Position numbers and translations under genes: made by a program
Part shown: positions 4,573-35,691 of the stretch, piece by piece
Layout of the letters: each line of letters starts with the position of its first letter
Position numbering within the stretch: the first letter of the stretch is position 1
The notes under the pieces: generated by a model
Databases searched by the model: none
The model's input: the letters and a program-made list of their open reading frames with translations, nothing else
Told to the model about the DNA's origin: nothing
Virus record (IMG/VR): IMGVR_UViG_3300010362_000003
Location: 1 to 47,435 of that record
DNA: 47,435 nucleotides
Reading direction: 5' to 3' (one strand)
Origin: a virus
Taxonomy: Duplodnaviria > Caudoviricetes

Positions 4573-5756
4573 GAGCACCCCGCTGGTTCGAGATCGAAGT
4601 CGTAGACGGGCGGCTGCGGGTGGATGTAGCGGTTCTCGCCGCCGCAGATCACGCCTGGGTTGCCGCAGATCGTCAGCGGCACCTGGACGGTGGGACTCGG
4701 GTAGCCACAGATCGGCATGTCGTGCGTGCCGAGGCAGAGGATCTCGTCGAGGTAGAGCGGCTCCTCTGACGGCAGCGCATCGATGTAGGTGATCGCGCCC
4801 GCGAGCAGCGCCTGCCCGCAGAGGAACTCGTTCAGGATCGTCGGGTTAACGTCGGTGAGGCAGTCGAGTGGGCCGAGGTCTTCGTCGACACAAGGCAGGT
4901 CTTCGATGTAGACGATGTAGGCGTCGATCAGTCCGAACGCCTGCGCGCTCGGGACACCAGGGACGACGAAGCGCTGGGCCGCGCTGGGTGTGCTGAACTG
5001 CTGCGCGCTCGGAACACCGGGGATCGAAACGAGGTAGGCAGCCTTGATGACACCGAACGCCTGCGCCGAGGGAACGCCGGGGATCGCCTTCGTGAAGCCG
5101 GAGCGGGTGACGATCGCGCCGAATGCCTGCGCCGAGCCGACGCCTAGCAGGGGGACGCGGTAGGTCGCGAGAACCGTGACGGTGCCGAACTGCTGCGCCG
5201 ATGGGACGCCGCCGATTGCGACGGTGCGGACGGTCTTGACCGTAATCGTCCCGAACGCCTGCGCGCTCGGAACGCCGCCGGTCGGCTTCGCGACAGTCGT
5301 CTTCGGCGTGATCGTGCCGAAGGCTTGAGCCGACGGGACGCCACCGATACTCCTGACGAGGACGCTCTTCAGCGTGAAAAGGCCGAACGCTTGCGCGCTC
5401 GAGACGCCGCCGATCGAGCGGCTGACGGCCGTCCTGATCGTGATCGCGCCGAACGCCTGCGCCGAGGGGACGTAGCCTGGCCCGAACTGGAGCGCCGCCT
5501 TGATCGTCCCGAACGCCTGCGCCGACGGGACGCCGGAGATGCTCCTCGTCTGCGCCGTCGTGACGACCGGCGTGATCGTGCCGAACAGCGTCCCCGCGAG
5601 ACCGCCAGTGACGTGGCCGTCGCCGGAGGTGACCTGCCCGCAGAGCGAGGTGTGCGGCCGGTAGACGGCCGGGAGACGCGCGTAGTTCTCGGCCGTCTCC
5701 CCGGCGACCCTCCCGTTCAGGAGGAACTTGTTGAGGATCGCGACGACGGTCGCCAC
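4569..5756 (-). CDS. Virion-associated repeat protein (about 20-aa GVPSAQAFG repeats)
   Basis: About 11 tandem repeats followed by an acidic Cys/Pro-rich C-terminus. Confidence 0.7.
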   Translation of the reverse strand: MATVVAILNKFLLNGRVAGETAENYARLPAVYRPHTSLCGQVTSGDGHVTGGLAGTLFGTITPVVTTAQTRSISGVPSAQAFGTIKAALQFGPGYVPSAQAFGAITIRTAVSRSIGGVSSAQAFGLFTLKSVLVRSIGGVPSAQAFGTITPKTTVAKPTGGVPSAQAFGTITVKTVRTVAIGGVPSAQQFGTVTVLATYRVPLLGVGSAQAFGAIVTRSGFTKAIPGVPSAQAFGVIKAAYLVSIPGVPSAQQFSTPSAAQRFVVPGVPSAQAFGLIDAYIVYIEDLPCVDEDLGPLDCLTDVNPTILNEFLCGQALLAGAITYIDALPSEEPLYLDEILCLGTHDMPICGYPSPTVQVPLTICGNPGVICGGENRYIHPQPPVYDFDLEPAGCS

Positions 5757-9976: not shown

Positions 9977-11906
9977 CCGGCGTGCCTCCGCCGCCGGCGT
10001 TCGCCGGACCGCCGGCCATGCTCATCAACCTGCTCATCGAGGCCTGCGGCGAGAGGCTCACGTTGTTCGAGGGCGAGGTCGGGCCGGCGGCCAAGGCGGG
10101 GTTGGTGACGCCGTTCGCACCCTGCTGGGGCTGCTGTGGTCCCTGCTGTCCGGGTTGCTGCTGTCCGGGCTGGATCGCCGGCGCGGTCTGCGGCGGCAGG
10201 AAGTAGCGCTCCTTGTCGAGTACGTCGTAGGCGTCCAGGAGCTTCTCCATGTAGGCCTTCAGGTTCAGTGGCGCTCCGGACTGGGCGAAGATCGGCTGCA
10301 CCTGCGCCGCGATCTGCACCAGGGCCTGTGCTTCTGCTCTTCGCTCCTGGCGGTTCAGCGAGTCGGAGGTGACATCGATGATCACGTCGTAGTCGCCCTG
10401 CACCTGCTCCGGCGTGATCCGCCGGTAGGCGTTCGCGCCCTCACGGCCGACGATCTTGACGACGCGCTCCTCGCGCAGGAACTGCTGGTAGAGGAGCAGA
10501 AACTGTTTGCCGAGCTCCGCGTAGGCCCACAGGTAGTGCTGCTTTCTGGCCTGGATCAGGCGCTGCGCGATCGTCGTGATGATCGAGACGCCGGTCGCCG
10601 TCTGCTGATCGATCGTCTGCGAGTTCGCGCCGGAGGCCATCGGCAGCCCGCCCATGATGTTCTGCAGGTCGCCCTTCAGGAGCGCCTCGGTCTGGAGCGT
10701 GATATTCGCGACGGTCGGGTCGATCGGCAGCGTCGAGACCTGGCCGGGATCCTCGACGAACCACTGCTCGTTCGGTGCCCAGACGAACGCCTCCGGGTCG
10801 TCCACGTCGCTTCTGATCAGCGTGATCACGTTCGCGAGCATCCGGACCACGTCAAGTCTTTGGTTCTGAACCGTCCAGAGCATCTCCTGCAGCTGCGCCA
10901 GCGCCTCGACGACGGAGATGCCGGGGATCGAGAAGGCGTCCGGCATCGAGGAGCAGACGGTGAACGGGATCCGTCCGTTCCAGAGCGGGTTCTCCCTGTC
11001 CTTCAGGACGACCTTGCGCGCCCCGACCGTGATCACCCGCTCCGGCGTCCAGTACTCCAAGACCTCGATCAGGTTGCGGGTGCGGTCGATGCCCCTGAGG
11101 CGCATCTCGCGCTTCGTGATGTCGCTCGAGGTCGCCGTCGACTTGGTGCCGCCCTGCGCGTCCTTCAGCTCCGAGACGTTCTGGTAGTCGTAGAAGCCGT
11201 CCTTCGACTTCCGCTTCAAGGAGTCGAAGCTCTCCCAGGTGCGGTGGATCAGATACTCGGCGTTGTCGGGCTTCGTTGCCTCGGGCGGCCAGAAGAAGTC
11301 CCTGACATCGACGACTTCGCAGCAGGCGTCATCCCAGATCAGTTCCGGTTCCTCCGAGGTCTGCTCGTTGTAGACGGTGACCGAGTCGTAGGCCTGCCCG
11401 AACTGGTCCGCGATCACGAGCGAGTGCGAGGCGAGCTTCGTGACCGTGCGCTTCTCGGAGCGCCAGTAGCTCTTCAGCACCGAGAGGCCGGCGATCAGGT
11501 CCTGCTGCATGAAGTCGCGCTGCTTGGTCGCGAAGCGGTCGCGCTCGAGCGCGTAGCGGAGCGTGTCCGCGAGCGCGTCCATCGAGTGGACACGGTCGAG
11601 CACCTCCTGGATCGTCTCCTCCGGGCGCGGCCGTGGCTGCACGTTGAAGCGCGGTGATGGCTCGAGCATCGTCGCCAGCATCCCCTCGCAGGTCTGCAGC
11701 ACGTACGGCGTCGTCACCTCGGAGCGCCACTCGTCGTCGGCGGCCTTGACCGAGTCCTCGACGAGCCCGCGGTACGCGTTGTAGCGCTTCTCGATCTTCG
11801 TGACGAGGTCGTCGTGGTAGTCGGTCTCGCAGCGCTGAACCGCGTTGACAACCAGCTCGAGCGCCGAGGAGACCTTCTCGGTCGTGTACGGAACTGTCTC
11901 GGCCAC
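9969..11906 (-). CDS. Portal protein (P22-like podovirus type)
   Basis: 645 aa; VLEYW, GISVVE and TATGVS motifs; Q/P-rich tail; after TerL. Confidence 0.85.
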   Translation of the reverse strand: MAETVPYTTEKVSSALELVVNAVQRCETDYHDDLVTKIEKRYNAYRGLVEDSVKAADDEWRSEVTTPYVLQTCEGMLATMLEPSPRFNVQPRPRPEETIQEVLDRVHSMDALADTLRYALERDRFATKQRDFMQQDLIAGLSVLKSYWRSEKRTVTKLASHSLVIADQFGQAYDSVTVYNEQTSEEPELIWDDACCEVVDVRDFFWPPEATKPDNAEYLIHRTWESFDSLKRKSKDGFYDYQNVSELKDAQGGTKSTATSSDITKREMRLRGIDRTRNLIEVLEYWTPERVITVGARKVVLKDRENPLWNGRIPFTVCSSMPDAFSIPGISVVEALAQLQEMLWTVQNQRLDVVRMLANVITLIRSDVDDPEAFVWAPNEQWFVEDPGQVSTLPIDPTVANITLQTEALLKGDLQNIMGGLPMASGANSQTIDQQTATGVSIITTIAQRLIQARKQHYLWAYAELGKQFLLLYQQFLREERVVKIVGREGANAYRRITPEQVQGDYDVIIDVTSDSLNRQERRAEAQALVQIAAQVQPIFAQSGAPLNLKAYMEKLLDAYDVLDKERYFLPPQTAPAIQPGQQQPGQQGPQQPQQGANGVTNPALAAGPTSPSNNVSLSPQASMSRLMSMAGGPANAGGGGTPGG

Positions 11907-17160: not shown

Positions 17161-18564
17161 ATGCCCGAAGCAGTAGGACTGAAGCCGCACCGCGAGCTGC
17201 AGCGGCGCTTGAAGCGTGGCTACAGACTCGTCCAGGCCCCCGGTGGGCACTACCAGATCAAGGACTTTGGCGGCAAGGCGGTCAGGTCGAACGGCCGCGT
17301 CATCTCGCTGCCGGCGACACCGGCGAAAGGCCAGTTCAACAAGCGGACGATGCTCGAGCTCGAGCAGGCGGGCGTGCTGCGCTCGTTGGACGAGCATCGA
17401 GCGCGCAAGCAGAAGCCGCCAGCGGACACGACCTCGGCGCGAGAGCTGAACGCCGAGCGTGACCGCGCCCGTCAGGCGGAGGTCGACGAGCTGAACAAAC
17501 GCTTAACCGAGGCGTTGAAGCCGGTCGGCGGCATCGAGCAGCCGGGGATGAGCGCGGATGTGGCCGCGATCGGCGGCCTGCTGGCCGACGAGGAGAGCTC
17601 GCGGCTGACCGCGAACCTGTTGCAGGCGAACCTGTTCCGGGTCGAGCACCATCAGCCGATCACGTCCGAGTACGCGGACATCTGGACTGAGCTCTGCGAG
17701 CGCCTCGAGCAGGCCGAGTCGACCTCGGACGAGTTCTTCTCGCTGCTGCGGAAGGCGAAGGGTCTGCCCGATCTCACCCAGGTGATGCGGCTCCAGAACA
17801 TCGACGGGGACTGGCCGTTTCACAACGAGCTGATCCCCTTGGAGCAGTTGTTCGTCGACCACTCCTACCAGCGCCCGCAGCTCTGGCCGGAGATCCGCAA
17901 GATGGCGATGATGTTCGACCCGACCCTGGTCGGCAACCTGGACGTGTCGCACCGGTCGAACGGCACGAACGCGATCATGGACGGCCAGCAGCGCTTCGAG
18001 GCGATGAGGAGAGTCGGCAAGACCGCCTGCTGGTGCTCCGTCTACACGGGCCTCGACCTGCCGGCGGAAGCGAACTTCTTCATCGACAAGAACACGAAAC
18101 GCAAGAGCGTGCAGCCGTACTGGACGTTCCGAGCCAGAATCACGGCCGGCAACGAGCGTGCGATCGAGCTCGAGAAGACGGTTGCCAGACACGGCTACCG
18201 GGTCGTCTCGAACAGCGGCGAAGGACACGACGACCGCAACATCTCGGCCGTCGCGGCGCTCGAGGCGGCGCAGAAGCGCGGCATGCTGACCCCGACGCTG
18301 AAGGCGCTGCGCGGCGGCTTCGGGCTCGAGGGCGGCACCAACGGCGGCCTGATCCGCGGCCTGAGTGTTTTCTTCCACGATCTCCCCGACGCCGAGGTGG
18401 AGCGCGTCAGGGGGCTGATCGAGAAGCGGGGCCCGAACTGGTTCGTGCTGCGCGCACGCGAAACCTCGCGCGGCTACGGCGGCATCGACAAAGCGACCCT
18501 ACGAGTCCTATTCGACGAGTACAACCGCGGCCTGCCGCGGGCCGACAAGCTCCGGCTCCCGTAG
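17161..18564 (+). CDS. DUF6551/ParB-N-like protein with HicA-like N-terminal domain
   Basis: LFVDHSYQR..IMDGQQR..EANFF..N; N-terminal GYRLVQAPGGHY..SLPATP. Confidence 0.65.
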   Translation: MPEAVGLKPHRELQRRLKRGYRLVQAPGGHYQIKDFGGKAVRSNGRVISLPATPAKGQFNKRTMLELEQAGVLRSLDEHRARKQKPPADTTSARELNAERDRARQAEVDELNKRLTEALKPVGGIEQPGMSADVAAIGGLLADEESSRLTANLLQANLFRVEHHQPITSEYADIWTELCERLEQAESTSDEFFSLLRKAKGLPDLTQVMRLQNIDGDWPFHNELIPLEQLFVDHSYQRPQLWPEIRKMAMMFDPTLVGNLDVSHRSNGTNAIMDGQQRFEAMRRVGKTACWCSVYTGLDLPAEANFFIDKNTKRKSVQPYWTFRARITAGNERAIELEKTVARHGYRVVSNSGEGHDDRNISAVAALEAAQKRGMLTPTLKALRGGFGLEGGTNGGLIRGLSVFFHDLPDAEVERVRGLIEKRGPNWFVLRARETSRGYGGIDKATLRVLFDEYNRGLPRADKLRLP

Positions 18565-18748: not shown

Positions 18749-19246
18749 TTACGGGGCCGTGAACTCGAAGTAGAGCGTCTCCGAAACCTCGCCGTCCGCG
18801 TTCCGGACCTGCACCGCGCACTTCTCGCCGGGAACGCCGCTGTAGTCGACACGGGCGGAGACGCTCGTCGAGTCGTTGAAGGTCGTCACCTGGCGCACAT
18901 CGTCGAACAGAATCTCCGCGCCGTCCTCGAAACCGCTGCCGGTGCAGGTCAGCACCTGCAGCATGCCGAGCGATGCGTCCTGCGAGGCCGGGTTGATCGA
19001 GACGAGGCTCGGACCCGGCGAGGAGGGTGTCTGCGCCTGCGCCGTCCTGCCGATCTGGGCGGTGACCGTCCCGGTCGCCTGCTCCTTGACGTAGAGCGTC
19101 CCCTTGATCAGACCGACCGCGCCGGCGACAAGCACGCAGGCGTCCGACTCATTCGCGGCCCCGCCGATCGCCGTCCCGTCCTCCGTCTCGATCACGAACG
19201 GATGCTGGGTCGACTCGTGCTTGATCGGGTCGAGCGGCTCGCTCAT
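18749..19246 (-). CDS. IPT/TIG (Ig-like) domain protein
   Basis: PSLVSINP..LTCTGSGF..VQVRNADG..FEFT; AGGAGG RBS. Confidence 0.7.
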   Translation of the reverse strand: MSEPLDPIKHESTQHPFVIETEDGTAIGGAANESDACVLVAGAVGLIKGTLYVKEQATGTVTAQIGRTAQAQTPSSPGPSLVSINPASQDASLGMLQVLTCTGSGFEDGAEILFDDVRQVTTFNDSTSVSARVDYSGVPGEKCAVQVRNADGEVSETLYFEFTAP

Positions 19247-19275
19247 CTGGCCTCCTGTCCTATATGTACATATCT

Positions 19276-19416
19276 ATGGGCATCGTGATCGCCGTCGTCG
19301 TCGGTCTCGTCGTCGGAGCCGCCTTGGTCCGCCTCGGCTACATCCAGGGCCGCCGGCACGAGCGCCGCCGCTGGAAGCGGCGCGGCCACTCGATCTGGGA
19401 CCAGGAACGGCGATGA
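19276..19416 (+). CDS. Small membrane protein
   Basis: MGIVIAVVVGLVVGAALVRLGY..; ATGA coupling. Confidence 0.5.
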   Translation: MGIVIAVVVGLVVGAALVRLGYIQGRRHERRRWKRRGHSIWDQERR

Positions 19417-19607
19417 GCGGAAGTACTGATAAGGCCGGAAAGGATGCGTTGCTCGCGCAAGCCCGCGAGCAGTTCGACCGTGCTGTCCCGCCCTACGCCG
19501 GACTAGGGCGCGAGTGCTGCCCCTGGTGCGGAGCGACCGATCACGGCCCTGAGCATGAGTGCCCGCACCTGCCTGAGTACGACGAGCGAGACGCACATGG
19601 CTGGTGA
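19413..19607 (+). CDS. Cassette mini-protein 1 (CPWC..H..C)
   Basis: MSGSTDKAGK..; contains dif-like site 1. Confidence 0.55.
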   Translation: MSGSTDKAGKDALLAQAREQFDRAVPPYAGLGRECCPWCGATDHGPEHECPHLPEYDERDAHGW

Positions 19608-19734
19608 AACGAAACATAAGGCCGGTTATGTCTCACCGCCAAGGCCACCGCAGGGCATCCGCTGCCCACGCTGCGGCTATGTCGAAGTTCGCACGGACGG
19701 CGGCTGCACGAACTGTGGGAAGCCGAAGCGATGA
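19597..19734 (+). CDS. Cassette mini-protein 2 (zinc ribbon)
   Basis: MAGETKHKAGYV..CPRC..CTNC (45 aa, manually read). Confidence 0.55.
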   Translation: MAGETKHKAGYVSPPRPPQGIRCPRCGYVEVRTDGGCTNCGKPKR

Positions 19735-19898
19735 CGCACGATAAGGCCCCTTCTGGTGCGTCGGAGTCGAACCCCAGTAAACGGTCGGCTGACTTCCCGT
19801 GTCCGCGCTGCGGCTCCGAGGAGTGGGAGTACATCGACTACGGCGGCTGCTCCGAGTGCCGTCCTTACGAAGAGCGCGAGCAGGAGGACGACGAGTGA
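19731..19898 (+). CDS. Cassette mini-protein 3 (zinc ribbon)
   Basis: MTHDKAPSG..CPRC..CSEC (55 aa, manually read). Confidence 0.55.
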   Translation: MTHDKAPSGASESNPSKRSADFPCPRCGSEEWEYIDYGGCSECRPYEEREQEDDE

Positions 19899-20092
19899 AC
19901 CAGCCGGAGCCTAACCCCAGAAAGACTCCGCTAGGCGAGCGAGTCGTCAGCGTCGTCCGCTTGCCCGATGGGCGCTGGGCGGCTCGGAACGAGCGCAACA
20001 CGTCAGACCTGACACGCGACGACCTGGCGCAGATAGTCGAGGCGTTCAAGCTCTGGGGTGCGCTGCTCTGGGATCGAGCGAATGCCCGATAA
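19895..20092 (+). CDS. Cassette mini-protein 4
   Basis: MNQPEPNPRK..; its stop is the TAA of the next site. Confidence 0.5.
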   Translation: MNQPEPNPRKTPLGERVVSVVRLPDGRWAARNERNTSDLTRDDLAQIVEAFKLWGALLWDRANAR

Positions 20093-20306
20093 GGCCGGTT
20101 ATGAGTTGCGGGTGACCGCTGCCGAAAGGCTCGCCGGTCAGGGCAACTACTTCGGCGCGTTCAACCTCATATCGCTCGAACTGATGGACGCGAAGGATGA
20201 GATCAACCGCCTTCGCTCAGAGTTGATCGCGGCCAGAGATGAGTATCAGAGGGCGCTGTGGGATCGCGATGACGAAATCGAAAGGCTGAAAGGTGACGCA
20301 CGGTAA
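20082..20306 (+). CDS. Cassette mini-protein 5 (coiled coil)
   Basis: MPDKAGYELR..DEINRLR..; its stop is the TAA of the next site. Confidence 0.6.
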   Translation: MPDKAGYELRVTAAERLAGQGNYFGAFNLISLELMDAKDEINRLRSELIAARDEYQRALWDRDDEIERLKGDAR

Positions 20307-20472
20307 GGCCGATTACCGCGCCGCCGACTGGCCGCACGGCCTTCGTTGCGCCGACTGCAACCGGAAGTTCGTCGAGGGGCAGCCGATCAGCGAACGGCTC
20401 GACAGCTTCATCGGCGACACGCCGGTCGTGGTCCTTGTCTGCGTCGGCTGCGCGATCGGGAAGAGCTCGTGA
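20293..20472 (+). CDS. Cassette mini-protein 6 (CxxC..CxxC)
   Basis: MTHGKADYRAAD..CADC..CVGC (manually read). Confidence 0.55.
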   Translation: MTHGKADYRAADWPHGLRCADCNRKFVEGQPISERLDSFIGDTPVVVLVCVGCAIGKSS

Positions 20473-20672
20473 AACGCGTCATCCACGGCGTCATGACGAT
20501 CACGCACACCGAAACGTTCTGCGGGCGCAGATGGCGGCACGAACCGAACCTGTACGTCGAAACGAAGTGGGAGCGCGTCAGCTGCAAGCAATGCCTCCCC
20601 AAGATCACCGACGAAGAGAACCAACTGCTCGAGCTCGAGCGCGTGCTCGAGCGACTCGGCCTCGACGGATGA
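20469..20672 (+). CDS. Small zinc-binding protein
   Basis: MKRVIHG..FCG..VSCKQC. Confidence 0.55.
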   Translation: MKRVIHGVMTITHTETFCGRRWRHEPNLYVETKWERVSCKQCLPKITDEENQLLELERVLERLGLDG

Positions 20673-22152: not shown

Positions 22153-22887
22153 CTAGGGTTCTATGGCTAGTGGTTCGGGCTGGTCCTCGCCTAGCACGCG
22201 GGCTGCTAGCCCTTGCAGGTCTGCCCAACTAAGCGAGCTCACCTCGTGCCCGTCTGCGGGGATCTGGACCTCTAGCGTGGCCGTCTGAATCGGGTATGTG
22301 GCGTCAAGCGCAGCGATGGCCGCATGCTGCCTTTGCAGGGATTTTAGGTCTGGATCGTCTAGCGGCGCGAGTAGCGCGCTAGCGAGCTCGTCTGAGCGCT
22401 CGAATGCGCGCATGCGGGCTATAGCGCGGGGATCATGCCGGCCGGCGTGGGTTACGCCTAGGATCGTGCGCGTATGACGGAGACGAGCTTTACTAGCGTG
22501 TCCCCGCGCGCTCATTGCGCTGTAGTCCGTCATCCCTCCGCCGGCGTGGGCTAAGCAGACTTGATACCTGCGTGTCGCTGTGGCACCGCACCGGTCGCCG
22601 CTTGCGCGTATCACCCTGCAGGCTTTCTCGTCGCCGTATGGCGCTAGCGTCGCGTCTGCGGGGATTCTGTGGCAGGCGGGGACTTCGAGCCCGTGCACGA
22701 GCGTATGAGGCTGTAGGGCTAACCAGGCAAGCGTTCCCGGTCTCGCTTCGAGCTCGTCTGCGGCAGCTGCCGGCGGGTTCGAAGTGTCGTCTGCGGTTTC
22801 GAGCTCGTGCGTGGGATTCTCCGCCGGCGGACTGTCGCGCTGTGCTACGCTTGTCTCGTCAGAACCTTCGAACAAAGGATCTCCCAT
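22153..22887 (-). CDS. Putative terminase small subunit-like protein (C..G.RC..C..H.GG zinc motif); start uncertain
   Basis: CRVIRASGDRCGATATRRYQVCLAHAGGG, a helical body, and adjacency to the skew switch. Confidence 0.45.
   Translation of the reverse strand: MGDPLFEGSDETSVAQRDSPPAENPTHELETADDTSNPPAAAADELEARPGTLAWLALQPHTLVHGLEVPACHRIPADATLAPYGDEKACRVIRASGDRCGATATRRYQVCLAHAGGGMTDYSAMSARGHASKARLRHTRTILGVTHAGRHDPRAIARMRAFERSDELASALLAPLDDPDLKSLQRQHAAIAALDATYPIQTATLEVQIPADGHEVSSLSWADLQGLAARVLGEDQPEPLAIEP
22841..22885 (+). promoter_or_regulatory. Early promoter/leader 1 (extended -10 TGTGCTACGCT, GTCAG, TCGAACAAAGGAT)
   Basis: Same layout recurs at 25150-25197. Confidence 0.6.
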
Positions 22888-33562: not shown

Positions 33563-33853
33563 GAAAGAGCCCCGCCCACCAGCCCGTCGAGGAAGGAGGT
33601 AGAGGCTCGAGCAAAGCGTAGCCGGACAAGGCGACTCGCGAGTACAGCGACTGACGTAAGGCCGCGAACGAGTACGTCCTGCCCAACGGGACCGTGCCAA
33701 GGCATGGAACGTGGCAGGCCTCCGCACCGACAGTGGACTCGATCTGTGAACACCACGCGTGCAGAGGAATCTCGCTCGCACCGGGGGCGTCGAGGAGCGA
33801 GGAAAGCACCGCTAGCAAGGCCGGAGCACTGCATCCCGAGGGGAGGCCTGACC

Positions 33854-34375
33854 GTGCGACAACTGACCGTGCGAGGAAGACGAGAGCGACGCAAACGGAA
33901 CAGAGGGGAGTGGAGGAAACGCTACGAAGAAGTCATGAACTCAGACGGCTGGCGAAGCCGGCGACTACTCGCGCTGCATCGCGCCAGCTCCAAGTGCGAA
34001 GAGTGCGGGAGCGAGGACCGGTTGCATGTCCATCACCTGACGTACAGGAATTTCGGCAACGAGCTGCCGGAGGACCTGCAGGTTCTCTGCGAGTCGTGCC
34101 ATGTGAAGAAGCACCAGAAACCGAAGAGGCCGAAGGCCCGGAAGCCGGCACGGCCAAAGCCTTCCAAAATGATCACGAGCAGACAGAAGGCGTTCGCGAA
34201 GCCGAGAGCTCTGCCGACTCAGGCTGAAGTGAAGGAGATGATGATCCAGCAGACGGCGAGATGGGTCGCAGCTCCGCCGAGAAGATCGCGGAAGAAGATG
34301 TCGCACTGCGTGACCAGCTCTGGTACGATGGCTCAGTTCAGTCAGAACAACCAGAGAAGAGGACAACCGAGATGA
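33854..34375 (+). CDS. HNH endonuclease with basic C-terminal tail
   Basis: CEECG..LHVHHLTY..GNE..DL..LCESCH; GGGGAGG RBS before GTG 33854. Confidence 0.8.
   Translation: MRQLTVRGRRERRKRNRGEWRKRYEEVMNSDGWRSRRLLALHRASSKCEECGSEDRLHVHHLTYRNFGNELPEDLQVLCESCHVKKHQKPKRPKARKPARPKPSKMITSRQKAFAKPRALPTQAEVKEMMIQQTARWVAAPPRRSRKKMSHCVTSSGTMAQFSQNNQRRGQPR
34301..34329 (+). promoter_or_regulatory. Putative integrase promoter inside the HNH gene
   Basis: TCGCAC-17-TACGAT with extended TG, followed by the GTCAGAAC/CAACCAGAGAAG leader. Confidence 0.45.
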
Positions 34376-35691
34376 AAGAATGGACGTACCCGTTCCGGAC
34401 GGGCTCAGGCCCGCAGGACGACGCCTACTGGTTCCTGGCCTTGCGGGCCAACGGCGTCTACTACTTCTACCGCTCCGCCAAGGACAAGTTCTCCTACCAG
34501 ACCCGTGACGCCGAGACGGCGAAGCAGCTCCACTTCGAGCGCTTCGGCTCCCCGAACGGCTTCCAGGTCGCGAACAAGCGCAGGCTCACGAACGACCAGG
34601 GTTTCGAGCTCTTCTGCGCCCGGCTCGCCAAGCGCGGCAAGAAGCAGAAGACGATCGACGGCTACAAGGGCACCTGGTACCACCACATCAGCCCGATCCG
34701 CGTCGCCGGCGGCGTCACGTTCGGCTCGCGGCCGATCCACAGGACCGACGCCGAGGACATGCTGGCCGTGCTCGACGCCGCCAAGGTCGCGAAGAAGCTG
34801 GTGCTCGTCAAAGGCGGCAAGGGCCGGCGCGAGCTCTCCGACCAGGAGCTCGGCGCGAGCGCCAAGAAGCACATCGACTCCGTGCTCTCGTCGGCCTACA
34901 CCTACTTCTGCCAGCCGTCGAACCGCTGGGCGCTCGTCGACTACACGAAGCAGCTGGGCGACGACAAGCCGCCGAAGCCGGGGGCCGAGGTCGCCGGCGA
35001 GGAGGCCTGCTTCAGCCCCGAGGAGATCGACCTGATCGCGGAGCACGTCGGCCGTTCCCGTTACGCGGTCGGGCGTTACGCGGTCTGCGCCTACAAGCGG
35101 AGGGTGATCGCGCTCTTGAGCCCCGAGATCGGCACCAGGATCTCGGAGACGCTCGCGATCGAGCTCGAGGACGTGATCGTCGGGCTCGTCGACATCGCGC
35201 GCGGCGTCGAGATCAGGAAACAGCTCCACATCAAGCAGCAGATCCGCGACGGTTACAAGCCGCTCGACCGCTCGACCTGGTTCGACACGCTGAAGGGGAA
35301 GGACGACGTGCTGGGCGACCGGCCGCGCCACGTGCCGCTCTCGGACTTCGCGCGCGAGCTCCTGACCGAATACATCAACCGCGGCCTCGCGGAGGGCTGG
35401 CTGCGCCGTGGCGGGCTCCTGTTCCCGACCTCGCGCCAGACGCCGATCCCGAACACCGACATCTCGGAGCCGCTGCGCAAGTCCGCGGAGGCGGTCGGCC
35501 GGCGGGTGCGCTCGCACTACTTCCGCCACACCTACGCCTCGAACCGGATCGCGCACATGCCGATCCAGCGGCTCGCCTACTACCTCGGCCACACGCCGGA
35601 GATGACCCGCAAGGTTTACGGCCACTGGACCGACGATCCCGAGACGCTCGAGCGCGATCGCAACCTCGGCCGCAAGGCGGTGGGGTCATGA
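34372..35691 (+). CDS. int: Tyrosine recombinase / integrase
   Basis: GTRISE, HYFRHTYAS, LGH and VYGH catalytic motifs; start moved to ATG 34372. Confidence 0.9.
   Translation: MKEWTYPFRTGSGPQDDAYWFLALRANGVYYFYRSAKDKFSYQTRDAETAKQLHFERFGSPNGFQVANKRRLTNDQGFELFCARLAKRGKKQKTIDGYKGTWYHHISPIRVAGGVTFGSRPIHRTDAEDMLAVLDAAKVAKKLVLVKGGKGRRELSDQELGASAKKHIDSVLSSAYTYFCQPSNRWALVDYTKQLGDDKPPKPGAEVAGEEACFSPEEIDLIAEHVGRSRYAVGRYAVCAYKRRVIALLSPEIGTRISETLAIELEDVIVGLVDIARGVEIRKQLHIKQQIRDGYKPLDRSTWFDTLKGKDDVLGDRPRHVPLSDFARELLTEYINRGLAEGWLRRGGLLFPTSRQTPIPNTDISEPLRKSAEAVGRRVRSHYFRHTYASNRIAHMPIQRLAYYLGHTPEMTRKVYGHWTDDPETLERDRNLGRKAVGS

Follow-up and report, generated by a model that had tools for sequence, protein, structure and literature searches.

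Integrase-less islands of the ICESt1/CIME type accrete in tandem at one att site. The phage cassettes described here are like them in being enzyme-less units that are bounded by att copies and, in our reading, moved in trans. Integrons (PMC5371416, available in part) are direct arrays of promoterless one-gene cassettes that a tyrosine recombinase reorders, and the phage arrays are like them in each of these respects; in some of the phages a recombinase gene with a first site also heads the array. The pdif modules of Acinetobacter and the IMEX phages (PMC6449649 and PMC4246890, both available in part) share the 11-6-11 site organization, and one of our two site families, A, copies the left arm of host dif as they do. 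The PeSL repeats of T4-type phages, as far as the available text of PMC2839356 covers them, likewise bound orphan genes in hypervariable regions, with insertion, deletion, replacement and mini-circles, and have been likened to integrons. Finally, the simple, arm-less tyrosine integrases of phages such as Brujita Int (PMC8138268, available in part) resemble the enzymes discussed below in being Xer-like and in using short att sites. As with att cores of the Brujita type, the core matches the host target, and the site adjoins the integrase gene and co-varies with the integrase clade, which applies to other phages and not to the genome that is our starting point.

That genome belongs to a soil phage and was analyzed as its whole virus record (47.4 kb, about 66% G+C), hereafter the window. 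It contains seven sites that are copies of two phage-integrase att cores, one dif-like (A) and one tRNA-Cys-like (B), placed in frame in gene starts. In our opinion they probably serve as crossover points at which integrases of other phages would act in trans to excise and insert cassettes of 100-700 bp.

Sites and mini-genes of the array

The window encodes an SU10-type portal protein, a terminase and a tyrosine integrase. The array is a run of short overlapping plus-strand ORFs upstream of the packaging genes. Its flanks hold a DUF6551 gene (17161-18564), which we read as ParB-like, an Ig-like gene (18749-19246), which lies on the opposite side of the array in a related phage (L139), and a possible small terminase gene (22153-22887). 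A first-pass annotation had described an integron-like array with six directly oriented, dif-like 11-6-11 sites. The six 28-mers are present, beginning at 19422, 19609, 19734, 19904, 20082 and 20296, spaced 125-214 bp apart, each a few codons into a new gene and always in the xxT-AAx register, with the N-terminal peptides DKAGK, HKAGY, DKAPS, PNPRK, DKAGY and GKADY. Their geometry is indeed that of tyrosine-recombinase sites, but they do not form one set. Five belong to family A, marked by TAAGGCC, whereas the site at 19904 belongs to an unrelated family, B, with the spacer CCCCAG, whose partner at 19761-19788 had been missed. All seven sites, and all genes of the array, lie on the plus strand.

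A 50-aa membrane-like ORF (19264-19416), also found in L139, gives the coupled start of g1 (19413-19607, 64 aa, with a Cys/His motif). Site A1 (19422-19449, AGTACTGATAA-GGCCGG-AAAGGATGCGT) occupies codons 4-13 of g1. L139 has the upstream gene and A1 in common with the window, the homology falls off past the A1 spacer, and A, B and B sites with other contents follow. Site A2 (19609-19636, ACGAAACATAA-GGCCGG-TTATGTCTCAC) belongs to g2 (19597-19734, 45 aa), which has CxxC motifs and no family match, and A3 (19734-19761, ACGCACGATAA-GGCCCC-TTCTGGTGCGT) to the zinc-ribbon-like g3 (19731-19898, 55 aa). B1 (19761-19788, TCGGAGTCGAA-CCCCAG-TAAACGGTCGG) abuts A3; together with B2 (19904-19931, CCGGAGCCTAA-CCCCAG-AAAGACTCCGC), near the start of g4 (19895-20092, 65 aa, without family match), it delimits a B cassette of 143 bp, which lies within the A array between A3 and A4. 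A4 (20082-20109, ATGCCCGATAA-GGCCGG-TTATGAGTTGC) begins at the ATG of g5 (20082-20306, 74 aa, coiled-coil-like, no family match above cut-off), and its TAA is the stop of g4. In the same way the TAA of A5 (20296-20323, ACGCACGGTAA-GGCCGA-TTACCGCGCCG) is the stop of g5; both of these double uses had been seen at first pass. The last two genes are g6 (20293-20472, 59 aa) and g7 (20469-20672, 67 aa), the latter coupled to g6; no site is seen in g7, with which the run ends. None of the mini-genes has a Pfam match above cut-off or a PHROG match.

A unit from spacer to spacer consists of a gene body, its stop and the next start, as proposed at first pass, and 11 of 11 simulated same-family deletions keep an open frame (44-78 codons). 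The spacer GGCCGG occurs in only three of the five A sites, so that matching spacers are found in the pairs A1-A2, A1-A4, A2-A4 and B1-B2. The spacers of A3 and A5 match no neighbor, and these two sites may be locked by the mismatch. Arm symmetry within single sites of the window ranges from 3 to 9 of 11, and A1, A2 and B2 have degenerate arms. TAAGGCC itself occurs seven times in the genome against 1.79 expected, a number reached in none of 100 shuffles. Five of the seven copies lie on the plus strand within 881 bp (19430-20310), with a rough binomial probability of 8e-7 for a motif picked post hoc. The other two copies (33657 and 21616) lie away from the starts of array genes and were rejected as sites. 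A weak A-like sequence at 33649-33677, upstream of the HNH and integrase genes, scored 11.8 and ranked fifth in the scan of the window; it was not counted. The window contains no tRNA gene and no Rfam match, and an explanation of the array sites as tandem repeats was likewise rejected. Between 16800 and 21200 there is one weak sigma-70-like promoter match against 0.3 expected, and it does not lie at any site.

Host counterparts and neighboring recombinases

A dif-like site, GCNCGATAA-N6-TTATGT, was found in 93 of 201 genomes of one actinobacterial order, in single copy in 92, and not in the control (0). Motifs of the form GGGNAGGG, which we take to be KOPS-like, point at this site from both sides (18:5 and 4:17, eight genomes pooled). 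Because it is single-copy and such motifs converge on it, the site is very likely dif, the site of chromosome resolution, of the host order; GC skew around it is flat. These genome counts include two unpublished genomes (G709, G602), and no claim is made on those alone. The order belongs to the same phylum as a genome titled Acidimicrobiales; Gaiellales is our guess for it, based on the label of a single homolog. One genome (G190) has two dif-like sites with different spacers, on C18 and C23.

The left arm of A is the left arm of this dif-like site. Individual left arms in the window match the dif left-arm consensus at 6-11 of 11 positions, A3 being identical to it, whereas the right arms match the XerD-side arm at only 4-7 of 11 (five sites; the best is A2, with 7/11), that is, the XerD arm is not conserved. 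A4 as a whole matches one host dif-like site at 21 of 28 positions. The A spacer GGCCGG is one base off a common dif spacer, TGCCGG, which by our count makes up 16 of 94 dif-like matches, among which GGCCGG itself occurs 0 times.

The B sites have another source. Their arms are the reverse complement of the 3' half of a tRNA-Cys gene, which was predicted from the arms, then found exactly in two genomes (G726, G624) and confirmed by ARAGORN. The same tRNA-Cys spacer region is present in 32 of the 201 genomes of the host order. A first host search for B had given no match in 401 genomes, and a first guess that B copies tRNA-Glu was dropped in favor of tRNA-Cys. The B consensus agrees with the host tRNA-Cys site at 16 of 17 positions on the left and 8 of 8 on the right, and 2 of 6 spacer bases differ; for B1 the agreement is 9/11 in the left arm and 7/8 in the right arm. 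With the spacers of the cassette B sites, only 2-3 of 5 T-stem bases would pair, and these sites are therefore not copies of a working tRNA gene with this arm. Thus, the likeness to dif that had been claimed for the whole array is confirmed for the A sites by their left arm, and does not extend to the tRNA-Cys-derived B sites.

Tyrosine recombinase genes stand next to sites of both kinds, all of them in other phages, which are siphovirus-like; the carriers that were examined are tailed and possess tape-measure genes. The three enzymes of clade B (370-380 aa; L162, L235, L201) are all followed by a B-arm site with the spacer CCGCTG, which begins 52-79 bp after the gene, and further B sites come after it. 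Similarly, eight of eight clade A genes are followed by an A-arm site, in seven cases within 20-58 bp, and seven different spacers occur among these master sites. By inspection, the master spacer equals a host dif spacer in two of the eight and is one base away in six. Six members of clade A were found without the A pattern and two by a site-first scan, which placed a clade A gene upstream in 4 of 7 GC-rich matches and in 0 of 19 others. In a third clade, T, the sequence after the gene is presumably a tmRNA 3' end in three of five cases. Clades A, B and T form one group (96/93) separate from the XerC- and XerD-like proteins of hosts, and their scores fall well short of the cut-offs for XerC, XerD and integron integrases; the catalytic residues R, K, H, R, H and Y are invariant in all four enzymes aligned. 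Searches for close cultured relatives of clades A, B and T gave 28% identity at best, and no cultured phage close to the window terminase or to a clade A enzyme was found.

A matrix was built from six clade A sites with the spacer ignored; the pattern by which these were cut out took account of the window's own sites. The matrix ranks A3, A5, A1, A4 and A2 as 1, 3, 7, 12 and 61 of 94,808 window positions. The arms of A3 are nearly those of the site after the recombinase of L155, a clade A phage that itself carries a B array and not an A array. An exact scan of viral contigs for the A core gave 74 single matches, none in arrays, which were taken as chance. Perfect ACGCACGATAA-N6-TTATCGTGCGT palindromes are present in three low-GC viral contigs (L262, L270, L271), with no clade A gene nearby.

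Two further observations concern the integrase genes as modules. Their first ~65 bases are ~95% identical in DNA across the three clades, whose proteins are ~30% identical (L155, 7957-7890, minus strand; L162, 2446-2515, plus strand; L157, ~9740-9670, minus strand); judged by sequence, this stretch is a candidate for a shared leader or a module-swap point. Past the integrase stop in L157/L236 and L242 there is a site that resembles a tmRNA 3' end, then a degenerate B master site, which suggests that one integrase module can take the place of another at the same position.

The nature of the A sites allows another reading, namely that host XerC/XerD alone work them in the manner of TLC attP, in which the XerC arm is good and the XerD arm degenerate, a phage integrase being involved for B only. 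We regard this as unlikely. The host always contains XerCD, the left arms match host dif as described, the right arms of A2 and A4 are slightly nearer the XerD-side arm than the inverted left arm, and the attP of TLC phage, with its degenerate XerD arm, depends on XerD (PMC4246890, available in part). Seven of nine scored A sites, however, have a right arm that is nearer the inverted left arm, like the sites adjoining clade A genes; every one of the eight clade A genes adjoins an A-type site, and clade A groups with B and T and not with host Xer. Host XerCD, one of two drivers suggested at first pass, is thus discarded for the B sites by their tRNA-Cys origin, and for the A sites it stays as a rival to the clade A enzyme.

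The other suggested driver was the window's own integrase (34372-35691, plus strand, PF00589). It is the sole tyrosine recombinase in the genome, and G008 has B-arm sites a short way upstream of an integrase gene. Nevertheless, this protein is a long-branch outlier in the tree with no BLAST match to clades A, B and T, and a single enzyme would have to read two unrelated arm families. Moreover, a PF00589 protein is found in all seven relatives that are at least 90% complete, and no B sites are present in the examined stretches of five of nine near-complete relatives, so that relatives carry such an integrase with or without them. We therefore judge that it is not the cognate enzyme, and that it reads the sites in cis seems very improbable. 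Genes of clade A or B are found neither in the window nor in the examined stretches of its terminase relatives. One of these relatives (L184) has a tRNA-Cys gene (10444-10516) downstream of its integrase gene.

Exchange at B sites in related phages

A terminase search yielded 74 related loci, and with the B pattern we obtained 11 stretches from viruses, 42 from metagenomes and 2 from genomes. Scanned with a matrix, the collected loci contain 159 non-redundant B sites, compared with 2 matches in 1.5 Mb of shuffled sequence; the sites are spread over 50 loci, of which 37 have at least two. Chance matches of the first scan (L001-L076, L079), matches judged chance by context (L161, L185) and the window (L220) were dropped before these counts. 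It should be noted that the loci are related phages, and neither sites nor loci are independent draws. The strong statistics given below apply to B sites and not to A; cassette sites of the A type come from few loci (the window, L139, L078, L156, L148, L194 and L265).

The B arrays are same-strand, and the only locus with matches on both strands has a palindromic site that is read twice. A start codon lies 4-14 codons upstream of the site in one frame in 104 of 151 cases, against 7 and 4 in the other frames, and 78 of these 104 starts overlap a stop. The distance from site to site is 2 modulo 3 in 69 of 106 cases, as coupling of the ATGA type predicts. This fixed frame a few codons past the start is what one would expect if the motifs were conserved N-terminal peptides or translation signals and not DNA sites. 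We give this reading next to no weight, because rare codons are fixed while amino acids vary: CTA in 77 of 130 (background 0.03), AAA in 87 of 97 (0.05), AGT in 100 of 106 (0.05) and TCG in 135 of 136 (0.45). The same arms are also present outside genes, past the stop codons of integrases, as well as in the dif and tRNA of the host. Conservation is therefore at the level of DNA and not of peptides, as the first-pass reading implied.

Gene content switches at the sites. Among 11,476 pairs of B sites, a 50-base flank is shared on at least one side in 31, and on one side only in 30 of these; variants of the left arm go with the upstream gene and variants of the right arm with the downstream gene. 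In 13 disjoint close pairs, the likelihood of a crossover is highest from -5 to +6 relative to the start of the spacer; it is lower by 13 log units at +7 and by 30 at -11. Empty and filled forms are seen in L169 (empty) versus L192 and in L156 versus the window; in L156, a site resembling A3 precedes an empty B site. In L189 one cassette is present twice. The g3 cassette recurs between B sites, with different neighbors, in L214, L225 and L204, and two shared cassettes stand in opposite order in L204 and L225; the switching of content and the changes of order thus both bear out the first-pass proposal. The g3 cargo is also present on two other contigs of the run that holds the region. Excised circles or junctions, also envisaged at first pass, were not found at any site among the contigs of that run; contigs drop rare forms, and for this reason the lack is no evidence of absence.

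Spacers behave differently from arms. Of 105 pairs of neighboring sites, 69 agree in the whole spacer (background 0.31). At its variable first base (C/T), 64 of 73 agree (kappa 0.75), whereas kappa is -0.11 to 0.21 for the variable arm positions. Tyrosine recombinases need spacer identity. The match between neighbors is therefore expected of these enzymes and not of annealing (on spacer identity, see also the available text of PMC4246890). This bears on the alternative that the att-derived sites now serve as short homologies for RecT/Rad52-like annealases, as thought for the PeSL repeats of T4-type phages. The ~30 conserved bases are near the minimum of 23-27 bp quoted for Red-beta (PMC3945230, available in part), one phage with a B array encodes a RecT-like protein, the window is without a cognate enzyme, and the type of site can switch around one cargo. 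Annealing would not, however, distinguish a single spacer base, at which arrays are uniform, from arm bases, at which they are mixed; crossovers center on the spacer, and the A sites have just 7-15 exact bases in common. Annealase action is, in our opinion, improbable.

The switch of site type is seen for two genes of the window. The body of g1 is 87% identical in L186, with B sites on both sides there, and a homolog of g6 (45%) sits after a B-type site in L155. The type of site is thus replaceable around a cargo, which site-specific exchange alone does not explain. With 14 synonymous and 5 non-synonymous codon changes between the two copies, g1 behaves as a real gene would. L186 is a 2.5-kb contig in the genome titled Acidimicrobiales, and this contig with a B array and the g1 cargo is possibly a misbinned phage fragment. 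It was all that the genome scan for B yielded in the way of arrays, and no junction of an integrated prophage was found.

Several loci show further site variants. Other spacer classes between B arms (CTGGTG, CCAGCG, CCCCGA and others) are present in L086, L179, L209, L162, L235, L186 and L198, with a CCAGCG site directly after the master site in L162 and L235. A-like arms with the spacer CGGGTC overlap the right arm of a B site in L148 (region of 4913-4940 and 4707-4734) and in L194. Past a B site near 5687 (minus strand), L157 carries an HTH/excisionase-like gene as a cassette, with long inverted repeats before the gene.

Proposed exchange and known systems

In the exchange that we propose, a cassette would run from a right arm through the gene body, its stop and the start codon of the next gene to a left arm. 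Directly oriented sites that agree in the spacer would recombine in pairs and release a circle, which would insert at a matching site; every product would be in frame and translationally coupled, and coupling would hand ribosomes along any order of genes. Integration of phages would be at dif for clade A, possibly with host XerC as a partner, and at tRNA-Cys for clade B. The same enzymes, from a prophage or a co-infecting phage, could recombine cassette sites with matching spacers. Changed spacers (CCCCAG/TCCCAG versus CCGCTG, and GGCCGG versus dif spacers such as TGCCGG) would probably keep cassette exchange separate from host integration.

On a broader scale, we lean toward the view that actinobacterial soil phages draw, across family lines, on one pool of mini-gene cassettes that lack a start codon and which prophage integrases shuffle via spacer-shifted att cores in parallel, exclusive channels (dif-type, tRNA-Cys-type and spacer classes), all in frame. 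Such a system would be an independently evolved, phage-side counterpart of the integron and a direct mechanism of gene-boundary mosaicism. The usual explanation of this mosaicism is recombination, either illegitimate or of the relaxed homologous kind, with subsequent selection; a site with candidate enzymes and a spacer rule provides a programmed alternative that is testable. If the view is correct, integrases have a second job that extends across phage families, and there is an explanation for why very small orphan genes come and go in a common soil lineage. Short orthogonal recombination sites can also be drawn from the natural variants of arms and spacers.

No description of such a cassette system was found in the literature, in which coverage of subscription papers was poor; within the texts available, there was likewise no report of simple-integrase cores multiplied with altered spacers as gene boundaries. 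Islands of the ICESt1/CIME type stack at a chromosomal site with its own core, whereas the phage units are 0.1-0.7 kb long, lie in phage genomes and are in frame, with a non-chromosomal spacer.

The remaining comparisons are limited to the available portions of the sources, which include bioRxiv 10.1101/633727 and 10.64898/2026.01.13.699239. Integron attC sites are 57-141 bp long and folded, with extrahelical bases (PMC5371416), whereas the phage sites are sequence-specific att cores of 28 bp. Unlike integron sites, they lie inside coding sequence, the cassettes lack their own start codon and are phage-borne, and two site families are nested. The enzymes also differ: four site-adjacent recombinases score 28-49 bits with the integron-integrase model TIGR02249, against a cut-off of 265, and the window integrase gives no match. 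The attP-like site adjoining clade A genes resembles TLC attP (PMC4246890). In pdif modules, however, sites are inversely oriented (PMC6449649), and the phage arrays are direct, with all seven sites of the window on one strand; unlike pdif modules and IMEX phages, they mostly have no XerD arm, a phage recombinase stands at the master site, the spacer differs from every sampled dif, and B is derived from a tRNA. PeSLs, the nearest parallel from phages, are ~100-bp intergenic promoter-terminators, consisting of a promoter and a stem-loop, for which homologous recombination is thought to act (PMC2839356), whereas the sites described here are att cores of 28 bp inside genes, show no promoter signal and have a spacer-match signature. 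Thus, the individual parts are known, and their arrangement is, by the features that define each of these systems, that of neither integrons, pdif modules nor PeSLs.
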